Below are positions 5,472 to 18,026 of a stretch of 25,090 nt of DNA, in pieces. The DNA lies in IMG/VR virus record IMGVR_UViG_3300028145_000047, positions 1-25,090 of that record, one strand, 5' to 3'. A program made the translations under genes and the position numbers. Every line of letters starts with the position of its first letter. Position 1 is the first letter of the stretch. Origin of the DNA: a virus (taxonomy: Duplodnaviria; Caudoviricetes). Under the pieces are notes generated by a model. The model saw only the letters and a list, made by a program, of their open reading frames with translations. It was not told where the DNA came from and did no database searches.

Positions 5472-5704
5472 TGATTCTCACGACGTTCAAGGGCATAGAT
5501 CCGTCGGCCTCGCGGCGCGGTTGCGAGGAATACGACATGGAGGACGGCACTACGTTCCTCTGGCCGCGATGCGAGATCAGCGGCTGCGCCAACGGCATCT
5601 GCGCAGGGATGAGCAAGAGCCTTTGCTACCCGCACGGGATTGAGTTCGGAGCGTTCACCGTGGCACAGTTTGAGGCCAACCGAAGGAAGAAGTTCGCCGA
5701 ATGA
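5471..5704 (+). CDS. Small Cys/His-rich hypothetical protein (77 aa)
   Basis: TGATG coupling to the HTH gene; CEISGC...C...CYPH suggests metal binding. Confidence 0.6.
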   Translation: MILTTFKGIDPSASRRGCEEYDMEDGTTFLWPRCEISGCANGICAGMSKSLCYPHGIEFGAFTVAQFEANRRKKFAE

Positions 5705-5970
5705 CCCTCCAGCCCTCCCGCCGCGGCTTCATCACCGGCCTCGTGTCGCTCGCGGTCACCGCCCCGGCCATCGTCAAATCTGCCAGCCTTATGCCCGTGA
5801 AGCTGATGCTGCCGAGCCGGCCGAGCCTGATCTACAGCAACCGCGTGATCCGCCGTTATGTGGACATTGAGGCTTTCCGAGATCGAAACATTTTGCTGCG
5901 GATTACCGAGGATGTGAATTATCTGGCAGTGCCGATCCGTGTGATCGACTTAGGTCCATCGCCATGGTGA
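5701..5970 (+). CDS. Tat-like leader fused to a major capsid protein C-terminal fragment
   Basis: SRRGFITG leader; residues 45-83 align to MCP residues 295-338, with 12/26 identical in the ungapped first block; ATGA coupling. Confidence 0.8.
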   Translation: MTLQPSRRGFITGLVSLAVTAPAIVKSASLMPVKLMLPSRPSLIYSNRVIRRYVDIEAFRDRNILLRITEDVNYLAVPIRVIDLGPSPW

Positions 5971-6290
5971 CTAGTCGCCGCTCGTTCATCACCGGCCTGA
6001 TCGCCTTCGCCGCCGCGCCTGCGATCGTCCGCGCGTCTAGTCTGATGCCGGTCAAGGCTATGGTGCCGGATCTGGAATGGCTTGAAGAGGATTTCGTTTT
6101 CCGGACTTCCATTCCCGCTGGAGATTGGCGGATGATCAATGCGCCATATGGGCGGTCGCCGGCCATGGACTGCCTGCTTGGGGCCAAGGAGGTGTGCGCC
6201 CATCTTGAACGGTTCCTGCGCCGAGCGCCGCCGATCATCGAGTTCGACAAGATCGACACCTCAGACCCGCTGTGGGCGATGCCGAAGTGA
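5964..6290 (+). CDS. Tat-like leader fused to major capsid and portal fragments (chimera)
   Basis: SRRSFITG leader; FVFRTSIPAGDWR matches MCP 52-64 at 12/13; NAPYGRSPAMDCLLGAK matches portal 315-331 at 11/17. Confidence 0.85.
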   Translation: MVTSRRSFITGLIAFAAAPAIVRASSLMPVKAMVPDLEWLEEDFVFRTSIPAGDWRMINAPYGRSPAMDCLLGAKEVCAHLERFLRRAPPIIEFDKIDTSDPLWAMPK

Positions 6291-12846: not shown

Positions 12847-14328
12847 TTATCGATACGGATTGTAGGATTCGTCGACGGCCGCCGCAATGCTGTTCGGCTC
12901 CGCAAACGGGTTGTAGTCGGCCTGCCTTTGCATTGTGCGCCGCGGCTTGTTCTTCGGCATCACGGGCTCTGCGAAGGTCTGGACGAATGAATCAGCCTCG
13001 TCGAGCCCGCCGCTGGCCGCCGCGCCCTGGATCCGCGCCTTGATCATCTCTTTTGGCTCAAGCAGCAGCCGGTTGCCTTTGATCGTGTACGTGGTCTGCG
13101 TCAATGCAGCCAGCAGCCCTGGGCTTTCCGCGAGCGCGCCGCCGCGCTTGATCCAGTCGACCGCGTCGAAATACATCTCCGTGCGCTTATTGTAGTACCG
13201 ATCTTTCTCGTGGGCCTCGCCAGCGTACTGAACGCCGAACGGCGACTTGCCGAGCTGGATAAGCTGGTCGATCCAGCCCGCGCCGAACCCACCGGTGGCG
13301 TCAACGAAGCACGCATCTGCGCCCCAATCGTCCCAAATGCGCGCCACGCGGCCCGCGCCCTGCACGCTGTTCACGTTCCGCAGCAAATCGGGCTTGAACG
13401 CCTGCAGCCCTTGCCGGCGGAAGATCGAGCTCGCGTCGTCGCCGTACCGCGCCACGTCGATGCCGAGCACCCGCGGCGCGCCGCTGATGTCATATTCGGT
13501 ATAGACCCGCTTGAATGCGGCCTCGACCTCGTCGGGCCCGATCAGCGAGTTGATGTTGCTCGGCGGAAACTGCCCGAAGATCCTGACCAGCACCCACGGA
13601 TTGTCCCGGCCGTACTGCTTGATCTGCTCCTCGGCGACCTCGACCGACACGCGCGGTGTCCGGTTCGGGTCGGCCGGATCCGCCGTGATCGTGATCACCT
13701 TCCAGATGTCGCGGGCGATCGTGCATGCGCGGTAGAGCGGGCCGCCGAGCTTGGTCGGGTTACCAGCTTGGACGATATGCGCCTCCTCGGGTGCACCGGA
13801 GAATATGCCCTCGCAGACCGGCATGATCGATTCGGGGTAATCTCCGGTCTCATCGAGCAGCCACATGACATGCTTGGCGTGCAGCCCGGCCAGCGCGTTA
13901 CCGATCTGGGTGTTGTCCGCGTCCTTCGGCCAAGTGCGGCCCTCGAGCGACCACGTCTCTGGGAACTGCCGGCAGTAGATCAGGGATTTTGTGAACTCGA
14001 ACTGAGATCGAAGCAGGTCGCTCGTATGATACCAGCGCGCGAGCTCGGCCCAGAGATTGGACTTGAGGTTTGCCCCGCTGATAGATGTCGCGCCGATCTT
14101 CGGGTGAGGCCGCGTCAGCAGGAAGTTCCACCCCAGCCACGCGAGGACGGCTGTCTTGCCCGGGCCCGCGCACGCCTTCATCGCAATGCGGCGGCTCGTC
14201 GGGAACGATTCGAGCGCGTCCTCTTGCCACCGGTCGGGCTCGGTCTTGAACAACTCGCGGACCATGGTGGCGGGGGATGCCCGCCACCGTCGAATATTGT
14301 TGGCCGCTATGGTGTTGGGGTCGGTCAC
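12847..14328 (-). CDS. terL: Terminase large subunit
   Basis: Adenine-binding WQ, Walker A ACAGPGKT, Walker B WLLDE, coupling motif GNP, nuclease motifs LGIDVARYGDD and DEADS. Confidence 0.93.
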   Translation of the reverse strand: MTDPNTIAANNIRRWRASPATMVRELFKTEPDRWQEDALESFPTSRRIAMKACAGPGKTAVLAWLGWNFLLTRPHPKIGATSISGANLKSNLWAELARWYHTSDLLRSQFEFTKSLIYCRQFPETWSLEGRTWPKDADNTQIGNALAGLHAKHVMWLLDETGDYPESIMPVCEGIFSGAPEEAHIVQAGNPTKLGGPLYRACTIARDIWKVITITADPADPNRTPRVSVEVAEEQIKQYGRDNPWVLVRIFGQFPPSNINSLIGPDEVEAAFKRVYTEYDISGAPRVLGIDVARYGDDASSIFRRQGLQAFKPDLLRNVNSVQGAGRVARIWDDWGADACFVDATGGFGAGWIDQLIQLGKSPFGVQYAGEAHEKDRYYNKRTEMYFDAVDWIKRGGALAESPGLLAALTQTTYTIKGNRLLLEPKEMIKARIQGAAASGGLDEADSFVQTFAEPVMPKNKPRRTMQRQADYNPFAEPNSIAAAVDESYNPYR

Positions 14329-14718: not shown

Positions 14719-14757
14719 CTCATTCTCCTTGTGATGCGCCGAGCCGCGGCGCGCGGG

Positions 14758-15123
14758 TTAGATGTGCTCCCCGAGATTTTTCTTCAGCTCGCGCAATTCA
14801 GCGTTCGCTTTGTCAAGATCGCGCGGCAGTGAATACGCCCACGACACGCTAACACGGCATATTGGTGTGGGGATCGGGAATAGGCCATCGCGCCAGATCC
14901 AGAGGAAATACCTTCTGCTGTTGAACGGCCGGAATTTCTTTCCGCAAATGGAGCGCTCCTCGCCCGGCTTCGGGTGCCGCCACTGGATGCTCTGTAACTG
15001 AGCACCGAACCCTCCGATCCATGTGTAAAGGCGACCGCTAAGCCAATAGAATCGCCCATCGAAGTACGGCGTTCCAAGCCCGTGGCCATTGCCGAAGATA
15101 CGATGATCAAGCCAGAAGATCAT
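14758..15123 (-). CDS. Hypothetical protein (121 aa, Trp/Arg-rich)
   Basis: Start lies within a repeated junction motif; tightly packed in the operon. Confidence 0.6.
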   Translation of the reverse strand: MIFWLDHRIFGNGHGLGTPYFDGRFYWLSGRLYTWIGGFGAQLQSIQWRHPKPGEERSICGKKFRPFNSRRYFLWIWRDGLFPIPTPICRVSVSWAYSLPRDLDKANAELRELKKNLGEHI

Positions 15124-15132
15124 GCGCTGCCC

Positions 15133-15249
15133 CTATCGCCCTGTAATGAACGTGACGTGCCGCGGTGCCGGCCGCACCCATACGTCATTCGCAACCAGCA
15201 GCGCCACAACCATGAGGCCGACCGCGAATAGCCATAGGTCTGATCTCAT
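15133..15249 (-). CDS. Small membrane peptide (38 aa)
   Basis: Manually translated MRSDLWLFAVGLMVVALLVANDVWVRPAPRHVTFITGR; ATGA coupling. Confidence 0.55.
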   Translation of the reverse strand: MRSDLWLFAVGLMVVALLVANDVWVRPAPRHVTFITGR

Positions 15250-15470
15250 GCGCTGGTCCTATTCCACTTCAAATGATTTCGGCCGTATACAATCCAGAGC
15301 GCCGCATTCATAGGGAGCAGGCCCCACGCCCCAGCGGCATAGATCCAAACTAACCATAGAGCCTGATTACCGAGGCCGATAAGCCATGCACGCGGGTGCT
15401 TGTTGCCAGCCATGAGCGTCATCCAAATAGTGATCGCCGAGAGAAGCCACGGCAGATAATCCTTGATCAT
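15246..15470 (-). CDS. Three-helix membrane protein, half-size PnuC/SemiSWEET-like
   Basis: 74 aa with three hydrophobic segments; AWLIGLGNQALW and YGRNHLKW resemble PnuC repeat motifs. Confidence 0.55.
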   Translation of the reverse strand: MIKDYLPWLLSAITIWMTLMAGNKHPRAWLIGLGNQALWLVWIYAAGAWGLLPMNAALWIVYGRNHLKWNRTSA

Positions 15471-15679
15471 GCGCTGGTCCCTATCACCTTGCCGTCCCGC
15501 AACAGCATGCTCGGATGCCGCTGCGCCGCGCAGTAGGCCTCGATCGCTGCCTTACCGTCGGCCGCAATGGTTGGCACCAAGCGCACATGCTCGCAGCAGG
15601 CAACGCAAACAAACTTCGCGCCAGGCACGCTCGGGATATAACTGTCAAAATCGCCCACAGCGCTGAACTTGACGCTCAT
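15467..15679 (-). CDS. Small Cys-containing hypothetical protein
   Basis: ATGA coupling at both ends; GGAG RBS; CVACCEH motif. Confidence 0.55.
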   Translation of the reverse strand: MSVKFSAVGDFDSYIPSVPGAKFVCVACCEHVRLVPTIAADGKAAIEAYCAAQRHPSMLLRDGKVIGTSA

Positions 15680-16178: not shown

Positions 16179-16478
16179 TTAGTTGTCGCGGCGCGGAGCC
16201 TCGGTCGATAGTCCTCCATCTCGATCACTTCGCCCATCGTCTTGCTCTCCCTGGATCAGTCTTACGACGTTGTCCGTCATTTCTTCCATCATTGCGCGGA
16301 TCTTGGCTTCGTCCAGATCGTGCGGGCCGCAGAGGACACACATCATGGCCTGCACCGAGCACAGCGCGCTCATGGCTTCGCTGGGCTTGGGCAGGGCGCG
16401 CAGCGTCGCGTAGATCATCTGCGCCGCCTGGTTGCCTCTGGCGATTCGGTCAGCGCGCTTGCCGCGATTCGTGGTCAT
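16179..16478 (-). CDS. Hypothetical protein (99 aa)
   Basis: ATGA coupling, GGAG RBS, helical composition. Confidence 0.6.
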   Translation of the reverse strand: MTTNRGKRADRIARGNQAAQMIYATLRALPKPSEAMSALCSVQAMMCVLCGPHDLDEAKIRAMMEEMTDNVVRLIQGEQDDGRSDRDGGLSTEAPRRDN

Positions 16479-16690
16479 GCGCCGTATTTCTCCGCCAGCC
16501 TCTTGCACATCATGCGCCATTCGTCCTTGGAAATGCGAGTATGAATGATCGTTCGATCGGAGCCGGGCCGCGCGGGGTCGACGCCGTAGATCGCTGCGCC
16601 CAGGCTTGGCTGCATCTTCTTCGGCTTCGGCTTGTCGTCGCCCAGCATCCGCGACCGGATGTTCGCGTAGTCGAATACGATCATGGTCAT
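16475..16690 (-). CDS. Mini-protein carrying a terminase-nuclease-like motif (71 aa)
   Basis: ATGA coupling, GGAG RBS; GVDPARPGSDRTII versus TerL GIDVARYGDDASSI. Confidence 0.65.
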   Translation of the reverse strand: MTMIVFDYANIRSRMLGDDKPKPKKMQPSLGAAIYGVDPARPGSDRTIIHTRISKDEWRMMCKRLAEKYGA

Positions 16691-17109
16691 TTCTGGCTCC
16701 GCTTCTCGGCCTGGCGCCCCTTGCGCCACTTCTTCTGCGCTGCAGCCCTGGCCATCCGGCGCGCGGCGCACACGGGGCAATCTGGCGCTGATTTGAGCTT
16801 GGTTGCGCGGGAGGGATTCGAACCCTCGACCTCCAGTTTATGAGACTGGCGAGCTAACCGCTGCTCCACCGGCGCAGAAAGGGTTGGCCCGGGCATTTCA
16901 CCGCCGGGCCTTTCGGTGGCGGGGGCCGATCTCCGCTTGCGGCCTCGTTCCAATTTCTCATGTGTCGGGTTCAATACAGGCGGGCTTACTTCCTCATGCT
17001 TGCCTCCCTTGTTGACCGGATCTCGACCGCGCGCAGCGTCCTCAAACTGGTTCGGCTTGCGCTGGAACCTCGCCTCTCGCATCGCGCGTAGTTGGTCGGA
17101 CTTGCTCAT
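16687..17109 (-). CDS. Hypothetical protein with C-terminal CPVC/basic tail and an embedded tRNA
   Basis: 140 aa open frame, coupled by ATGA to the next gene; apparent leaderless start behind a promoter; protein-like termini (MSKSDQLRAMREARF; CPVCAARR...KKWRK). Confidence 0.6.
   Translation of the reverse strand: MSKSDQLRAMREARFQRKPNQFEDAARGRDPVNKGGKHEEVSPPVLNPTHEKLERGRKRRSAPATERPGGEMPGPTLSAPVEQRLARQSHKLEVEGSNPSRATKLKSAPDCPVCAARRMARAAAQKKWRKGRQAEKRSQK
16800..16876 (-). tRNA. tRNA with CAT anticodon (Met-like; one extra C in the acceptor stem, possibly degenerate)
   Basis: D arm GAGC-AGCGGTTA-GCTC, anticodon arm CCAGT-CTCATAA-ACTGG, T arm GAGGG-TTCGAAT-CCCTC, encoded A-CCA end; acceptor TGCG(C)CGG/CCGCGCA. 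Confidence 0.8.
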
Positions 17110-17314: not shown

Positions 17315-17836
17315 TCAATCATCTTCCACCACCTTGCCCTCGACCAGCTTCGGCTCTTCGTAGCTCTGGTTCACAAGGTCCGCCAGGCTCACCGTGATCT
17401 TCAAGTCTATGTTCTCCTTGAACATTCCTTTGTGCCGCGCCAGCGCGTCGAGCGCGGCGGTCTTGTTGTGCATCTTGATCACGATGCCGTCTTTCGTCTG
17501 CCGAACCTCAGAGATTGCCGCCGTTACATCGGGCCCGAGCTGCGCGCTGGGCCGGAGTTTCAGGCGCCGGCCGTCGAACTCCATGACGTCCGTGATGTCG
17601 CTATAGCCGATCCTTGCATACTCTTTGGCGAGCCGTTCGACGGCGATGGAGGCTCTTTCCTCCATTCTTTCAACGAGTTCCGAGAGGCGTTTCTTGACCG
17701 CTTCTTTTTGCGTCAACCGATAGGCGTTGCCTTCGTTCGGAGTATAGCCGGCAATCTCGAACGCCTCGCTCTGAGATTTTCCCTTGGCGAGTTCTAGGCA
17801 GAAGCGTTCGTGGCGGATATTCTTGAGTGGGGCCAT
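17315..17836 (-). CDS. terS: Terminase small subunit
   Basis: LKNIRHERFC...SQSEAFEIAGY...AYRL HTH; EYARIGYSDI and IKMHNKTAALDALARHKGMF motifs. Start inferred at MAPLKN. Confidence 0.88.
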   Translation of the reverse strand: MAPLKNIRHERFCLELAKGKSQSEAFEIAGYTPNEGNAYRLTQKEAVKKRLSELVERMEERASIAVERLAKEYARIGYSDITDVMEFDGRRLKLRPSAQLGPDVTAAISEVRQTKDGIVIKMHNKTAALDALARHKGMFKENIDLKITVSLADLVNQSYEEPKLVEGKVVEDD

Positions 17837-17840
17837 ATGC

Positions 17841-18026
17841 TTAGCGTGCATCTCTGGTAGGGGCTGATGGATAGGACCGGCCGTTGTTGGCACGACATGC
17901 GGCGTCGGCGGTTTCCCGTGTCTTCTTGGCCGGGGCGCACTTGGGGCACTCCCAGGGATACTCGCCCGAGGCGCGGAATGGTTGGCCGGTTTTGATCGTA
18001 CCGCACTTGCAGCGGAAAATCGCCAT
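17841..18026 (-). CDS. Small zinc-ribbon protein (61 aa)
   Basis: CKCG...WECPKC; TAATG coupling. Confidence 0.5.
   Translation of the reverse strand: MAIFRCKCGTIKTGQPFRASGEYPWECPKCAPAKKTRETADAACRANNGRSYPSAPTRDAR

Follow-up and report, generated by a model that had tools for sequence, protein, structure and literature searches.

Terminase, portal and capsid are established triggers of Avs sensors (PMC13601566; bioRxiv 2026.08.25.746987; PMC13581612), and capsid sensing has been reported for Avs8 (PMC12236752). The preliminary description of the DNA analysed here stated that Avs3 recognises terminase active-site residues, and this is so for SeAvs3, which grips the natively folded nuclease domain over a large surface (PMC13601566) and whose activation is stated to require both terminase domains (bioRxiv 2026.08.25.746987). 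EcAvs2 and three Upx homologues fire on the ATPase domain alone; EcAvs2 holds an 11-residue helix of the unfolded nuclease domain, and Upx has been modelled as binding unfolded strands (PMC13601566). Going by the accessible part of that report, sensors that read short terminase segments thus exist, and broad shape-complementary interfaces are described in at least 12 of 14 Avs families (PMC13581612).

Among phage products that meet such sensors, T4 vs.8 and Ksap1/Ksap2 are, like the 71-aa mini-protein studied here, accessory proteins resembling a part of TerL (the large terminase subunit), and an anti-defence role for proteins of this type has been raised as a possibility (PMC13601566; PMC11564622). 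According to the accessible sections of these sources, however, they are folded ATPase-like domains that activate Avs2, whereas the motif in the mini-protein is linear, nuclease-side and mobile across unrelated proteins. Instead of an ATPase-like alpha/beta core of the vs.8/Ksap type, AlphaFold2 gives two helices and coil for the mini-protein, and it has no Walker motifs. The anti-Avs proteins DruSM1 ORF55 (a DNA ligase) and ORF83 (DprA/Smf-like) counter terminase-sensing type III Avs (bioRxiv 2025.06.06.658234), as is proposed here for the mini-protein, but their folds are those of enzymes or nucleotide-binding proteins, nothing in their sequence derives from terminase and, in the available portion of that source, no trigger mimicry is described. 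Neither Pfam nor PHROG indicated homology of the 71-aa protein to the anti-Avs ligase or to DprA/Smf; judged by its sequence, it is neither a terminase nor a homologue of the described anti-Avs proteins. Mimicry of host-protein ligands by short linear motifs is well known from eukaryotic viruses. DNA-mimic anti-defence proteins such as Ocr likewise use a small portable surface to mimic a ligand of a host protein (bioRxiv 2025.06.06.658234, in the part available). In contrast to both kinds of mimic, what is imitated in our case is an essential enzyme of the virus itself, and the motif is taken from the active site of that enzyme. The broad idea of viral mimicry as counter-defence is known, while for the motif itself no description was found in the literature searched (five spellings included; subscription papers lay mostly outside it).

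The window, that is the whole stretch of DNA that was analysed, is 25,090 bases long and constitutes the entire virus record. Its gene content points to an alphaproteobacterial host. The features on which the following argument depends are:

17315..17893, minus strand: TerS, the small terminase subunit (Pfam Terminase_2, E 2e-17), the upstream limit of the interval that holds the mini-gene
16475..16690, minus strand: gene of the 71-aa mini-protein (open reading frame with Shine-Dalgarno sequence and ATGA overlaps), composed of a leader, the TerL-loop motif and a C-terminal helix
16628..16690, minus strand: N-terminal leader, residues 1-21, of the FDYxDIRSRMLGxDKP type, conserved, with a predicted helix at 8-15
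16544..16585, minus strand: TerL nuclease first-strand/loop motif GVDPARPGSDRTII, with D38, P42 and D45
16484..16528, minus strand: predicted C-terminal helix, residues 55-69, which a few family members also have
12847..14328, minus strand: TerL (PHROG 2, E 4e-20), with its motif at nt 13464-13423 including D291 and D298
11383-9551, minus strand: portal (Pfam Head-tail_con)
3385-2339, minus strand: major capsid protein (MCP), GP7-type
5701..5970, plus strand: mini-protein with a Tat-like leader and a diverged capsid C-terminal segment (MCP ~288-338; 0/2000 shuffles)
5964..6290, plus strand: mini-protein with a Tat-like leader, in which MCP ~51-97 overlaps portal ~310-357 (0/2000 shuffles each)

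RecT and exonuclease genes also lie on the minus strand of the window. PHROG 2 is a poor probe for TerL, as it gave matches in 11 of 14 control genomes and its match in G001 is not a TerL. The interval between terS and terL contains 12 small open reading frames and a tRNA-Met. Soil metagenome runs hold near-identical or related DNA, and a related strain in run X3 joins directly across window positions 14756-15131 and 15244-15675; as this strain skips both stretches, turnover of the small genes in the terS-terL interval seems to be fast. The tRNA-Met(CAT), at 16800-16876 on the minus strand, is placed inside a same-strand open reading frame (16687-17109, minus strand) just upstream of the mini-gene, and a counterpart in L001 has a tRNA-Arg(TCT) at 2273-2350, at a like place inside a similar frame (2113-2490). 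Dual coding, or insertion of a tRNA into a tolerant linker, are possible explanations of this arrangement.

The mini-gene has a GGAG 6 nt ahead of its ATG and an ATGA overlap with each neighbour. In comparison to the related strain it shows 9 synonymous and 6 nonsynonymous differences, i.e. a pN/pS of 0.19 (binomial p 0.002), as counted on one contig of run X3 at a depth of 5.4, with 21 of the 29 differences listed and a misaligned linker (6) left out; a 24-nt insertion in that strain preserves the frame. The 71-aa gene is genuine and under purifying selection. Still, two of the six amino-acid changes in the X3 strain, which keeps the gene, are G43S and D45A within the motif, and a strict need for the motif is thereby weakened. 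The preliminary description, which placed an otherwise unrelated 71-aa protein between terS and terL, was borne out, as terS and terL flank the gene, the protein matched no Pfam or PHROG family, and it has no significant match to TerL beyond the motif. AlphaFold2 on 13 motif-bearing members gives helices at 8-15 and 55-69 at a mean pLDDT of 64, with the motif as coil (pLDDT ~52) and no hairpin. In the ESM Atlas the closest clusters are viral proteins without names, and terminase-named clusters (0.93 for the whole protein, a family present on 15% of members; 0.79-0.82 for the motif part) can be taken as leads only.

The resemblance to terminase was reported as 7 identities in 14 residues between GVDPARPGSDRTII (nt 16585-16544) and GIDVARYGDDASSI of the phage's own TerL (nt 13464-13423), both acidic residues included, and these coordinates and identities were confirmed (24/42 at the DNA level). 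D38 is the counterpart of the catalytic Asp of TerL and D45 that of the second Asp. The description had left chance open as an explanation. On one hand, this caution holds for the own TerL, since the score was equalled by 189 of 5000 whole-protein shuffles and 40 of 2000 tail shuffles, which is marginal, and a six-frame self-BLAST did not have the mini-gene/TerL pair among its 40 best pairs; the lack of a Pfam or PHROG match would also suit an ordinary hypothetical protein that happens to resemble TerL. On the other hand, it does not hold once outside TerLs are considered. GVDPARPGSDRT agrees at 11 of 12 positions with the motif that other TerLs have in the catalytic strand of their nuclease, two genuine TerLs carrying GVDPARFGSDRT, just one residue off the mini-protein. 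Moreover, a profile of five TerLs (from the window, L019, L020, L021 and L023, picked by homology to the own TerL and not by the motif, with L024 and L025 outside) gives the tail 7.1 bits at the same site, while the 4,500 pooled shuffles have a 99.9th percentile of 2.6 bits and reach 7.1 as their maximum, so that this non-circular score equals the best of them. Two scrambled patterns gave no loci at all, whereas the motif recurs in many contexts. It is thus the outside TerLs, through the profile and the 11/12 identity, and not the own TerL alone, that put the match beyond chance; a chance resemblance is largely refuted and highly improbable, and derivation of the motif from TerL is supported at the sequence level.

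What the motif corresponds to in TerL can be told from a form lacking the proline. In an IMG/VR scan, the pattern G[VIM]D[PLSF]AxxGxD[RS]T matched an estimated ~1,100 stretches (extrapolated from 7 of 64 parts); each of the 120 sampled loci was TerL, and none had Pro at the seventh position, TerLs having mostly F, G or S where the other form has Pro. G289, D291, A293, G296 and D298 are invariant among 25 aligned TerLs, and a profile of these 25 matches the nuclease domain of Sf6 gp2 (E 3.5e-11). Following a 20-residue offset along this alignment, the first Asp of the motif falls on Sf6 gp2 D244, and D296, N441 and D444 are reproduced too. These four are named active-site residues of Sf6 gp2, D244 belonging to the metal-binding triad (PMC4678813). 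The second Asp of the motif lies outside the Sf6 triad, and the peptide holds one of the three triad aspartates. The motif profile had no meaningful match among PDB sequences. In comparison to the RNase H/RuvC-like nuclease of TerL (Sf6 gp2, PDB 4IDH/5C10; PDB 8DKR), the mini-protein thus shares the first catalytic strand and loop, the first catalytic Asp being part of a GxD strand that leads into an xAxxGxD loop. In contrast, the shared part is just 12-16 residues long, the second and third triad Asp, the sheet and the RNase H-like domain are missing, and so is the N-terminal P-loop ATPase. As the remaining catalytic Asp residues and the sheet are absent, the mini-protein cannot be a nuclease.

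The motif had been presented as a copy of the phage's own TerL; this part was not upheld, as it is rather a variant with proline that is spread over many phages, including several with other TerL types. P42 is the diagnostic residue of this form. IMG/VR scans with Pro fixed gave, with the motif masked, non-TerL proteins at 10 of 12 and 23 of 26 loci (25 of 29 distinct contigs overall), while two scrambles of the same codons yielded 0 and 0 loci and only four TerL contigs share the Pro-Gly. The flanks left unspecified in the first scan were TerL-like at the non-TerL loci, with a hydrophobic residue before Gly in 9/10 and after Thr in 9/10. Motif codons vary synonymously among copies, hence conservation is at the level of protein and not of DNA; a DNA-level repeat element was ruled out on the same ground. 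In GTDB, a stricter pattern gave four matches, two in prophage-like regions and two off-frame in host genes, and hence no in-frame host protein. A word-indexed search with the motif profile gave 45 proteins, some through the leader only, and 60 matches were obtained among 1.84 billion representatives; none of the 60 fitted the TerL profile with the motif masked, though P0115 gives, on inspection by eye, the impression of a genuine but incomplete nuclease domain.

Pooled, 84 carriers fall into 66 unrelated clusters with a median length of 109 aa. They include RecE-like exonuclease tails, an N-terminal extension of TerS (L174) and P2-like DUF2732 proteins. The carriers comprise early and late proteins with unrelated jobs, and the motif is placed in their low-complexity linkers or at their termini. 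Gly, Asp, Ala, Gly, Asp and Thr are almost fixed among them. Pro was present in 72 of 75 profile matches, a biased count because the query itself contained Pro, and in 9 of 12 members, read by eye and sharing descent, of a leader family found without the motif. A tblastn search of cultured phages with the 71-aa protein gave seven weak records; of the four matches opened, one had the real motif (Yersinia phage vB_YenM_201.16), one was unrelated and two were on the non-coding strand. That copy belongs to a DUF2732 protein (L039, 1468-1740), a further DUF2732 carrier is P0071, and one copy is eroded; the optional N-terminal extension that bears the motif is covered by 8 of 58 cultured-phage records. 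The carriers' own terminases were sought in ten records, five of them incomplete, with the TerL alignment: in G313 and G310 the own TerL motifs are proline-free, the TerL of G002 has no such motif, and the complete records G003, G311 and G312 had no TerL of this subfamily. With several carriers having a different own TerL motif or none of the subfamily, the motif is not debris of local duplication. Sliding-window profiles put other TerL segments above the 99th percentile in 1 of 38 carriers. Pieces resembling TerL Walker A/B, lid and N- or C-terminal parts, or capsid, were noted by eye in P0008, P0054, P0063, P0064, P0067, P0069 and P0104; shuffles reached the count in 57/300 cases for Walker A, 46/300 for Walker B and 300/300 for the N-terminal part, and although the lid and the C-terminal (HDD-like) part gave 0/300 each (one protein), these patterns are post hoc and were not counted as established. 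With a short conserved peptide in unrelated proteins, mostly in linkers and at termini, and scrambles giving nothing, the sequence comparisons mark the proline form as a short linear motif that derives from TerL and is mobile; the present gene is one of its carriers.

Looking for homologues through the N-terminus, as had been proposed, an alignment of seven sequences retrieved 45 proteins with a common N-terminal leader, of which 8 (strict motif) to 12 (by eye, with four eroded copies in P0003, P0010, P0011 and P0018) keep the motif; in the remaining 33-37 it is swapped for other tails. The prediction of the preliminary description, retention or swapping, was borne out in both directions. The alternative tails are a CxxC...CxxC zinc finger (20/45) or other; no member has both the zinc finger and the strict motif. 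Where context is available, family members adjoin terS or terL (L001-L004 and L028-L031) in phages of differing TerL types, while the leader gene of L037 had no terminase gene nearby. The L037 phage has, at 13689-13762 (+), an ARAGORN-predicted tRNA with a CTA anticodon, possibly an amber suppressor. Two leader genes with different tails, L003 3881-4048 and L004 3866-4045, stand ~5.7 kb apart on the same contig. Directly upstream of terL in L003 (6178-6390, minus strand), a different leader is followed by a shorter-spaced variant, VGVDIGSGPDWSAV, and then by a zinc finger; the TerL of that phage is of another type. This variant suggests independent captures of the same loop. In P0083, the motif follows a related but distinct leader of the FDFKDINQRM type.

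The capsid and portal fragments named in the preliminary description proved real (0/2000 shuffles each), so that pieces of all three head-assembly proteins are indeed present in this phage: the terminase motif and the capsid and portal segments. No capsid, portal or TerL fragment was found in the other 11 small open reading frames between terS and terL or in the frame past terL (best 11/300). Both mini-genes with Tat-like leaders lie on the strand opposite to the structural operon, and the capsid and portal pieces of the 5964-6290 gene meet at one Trp that belongs to both. Carrier P0104 has the same Tat-like leader, followed by the identical terminase motif; the terminase, capsid and portal mimics are linked thereby, both kinds of cargo being found in at least one leader family.

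We tentatively favour, at somewhat less than even confidence, the reading that the mini-protein may be a non-activating decoy for sensors of the terminase nuclease, of the Avs3/Avs1 type or other. In this scenario, the modular tail would display 12-16 residues copied from the TerL nuclease, namely from its first catalytic strand and loop; the ATGA coupling suggests that the gene would be co-expressed with TerL from the terS-terL transcript. Pro-Gly may favour a free-standing turn in the free peptide, although the AlphaFold2 model shows none. The peptide could then occupy the nuclease-reading site of a terminase-sensing receptor, which would be blocked and not triggered. Blocking without firing is conceivable because SeAvs3 is reported to need both domains and a nuclease-side peptide alone would be insufficient. 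A 12-mer decoy is made plausible but is not implied, since SeAvs3 recognises the nuclease in its folded state, and EcAvs2 and Upx respond to the ATPase. In favour of a decoy are the occurrence of the proline form in 66 unrelated contexts with synonymous codons, the tail-swapping leader, the link through the Tat-like leader and the existence of Avs3a homologues in Alphaproteobacteria. Against it stand the large folded surfaces that Avs sensors mostly grip, G43S and D45A in the X3 strain, the many leader relatives that lack the motif and the eroded P0003 and P0018, together with the single triad Asp, the predicted coil and the fact that Avs3a is uncommon in the sampled class: among 301 genomes of Alphaproteobacteria, Avs3a homologues were matched in 5 (4 as long open reading frames), and none passed the Avs3a family cut-off.

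Part of the evidence against a decoy would suit recombination debris, i.e. terminase pieces captured behind good translation starts, shuffled among accessory genes and tolerated under brief or weak selection, with the motif standing out merely as the most recognisable piece of TerL. Its loss in the close X3 strain, the eroded copies within the leader family, the quick gene turnover in the terS-terL interval (with 14756-15131 and 15244-15675 skipped) and the fact that the searches themselves were built on the motif all fit this idea. We regard it as rather unlikely, as the same boundaries and the Pro-Gly, shared by so few TerL contigs, recur in the 66 contexts with synonymous codons, the carriers' own TerL is often different, and other parts of TerL are not captured nearly as often. 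A further reading is a selected docking or metal-binding tag for a non-immune partner, such as a host protease, a chaperone or another factor that touches the loop, by which phages would tether a variety of proteins to this partner; the motif sits in linkers and termini of unrelated early and late proteins, as docking motifs do, and its Gly, Asp, Ala, Gly, Asp and Thr are almost fixed. Such a tag appears unlikely, however, given that we know of no non-immune partner touching this TerL loop and the literature searched offered none, that the strict pattern met no in-frame host protein among its four GTDB matches, and that leaders shared with capsid and portal fragments are a sign of virion-protein mimicry.

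The position of the gene between terS and terL, the leader relatives that adjoin these genes and the carrier that is TerS itself (L174) raise another idea, namely that the peptide interferes with packaging by binding TerL, TerS or portal, through strand exchange into the nuclease sheet or a docking surface, with the effect of adjusting packaging in the phage itself or of shutting out rival phages and satellites. In the RNase H fold, however, the copied strand is buried in the folded nuclease sheet. Many carriers also belong to replication and recombination regions, and their TerLs are often of another type; we thus find this explanation quite unlikely, even though prophage-encoded assembly inhibitors do exist (PMC10884400).

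Extending the decoy reading beyond this gene, we can propose, albeit as a doubtful generalisation, that tailed phages may have in common a portable set of peptide decoys taken from those parts of their own head-assembly proteins that cannot change. It would include the proline-locked loop and the capsid and portal pieces, set on interchangeable leaders and in linkers of abundant proteins, and would jam receptors of the terminase active site, possibly a sensor family yet to be found, with the peptide as its bait. Genes bearing the motif can be mislabelled as terminase fragments in annotation. Avs receptors are thought hard to escape, as the enzyme residues on which they rely are ones that a phage has to keep; if the decoy reading is true, a general and cheap answer would be to flood the sensor with the part of its target that is immutable, and the motif could serve as bait for terminase sensors yet to be found. 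Even without a decoy role, a mobile, phage-associated linear motif that comes from the active site of an enzyme needs explaining.
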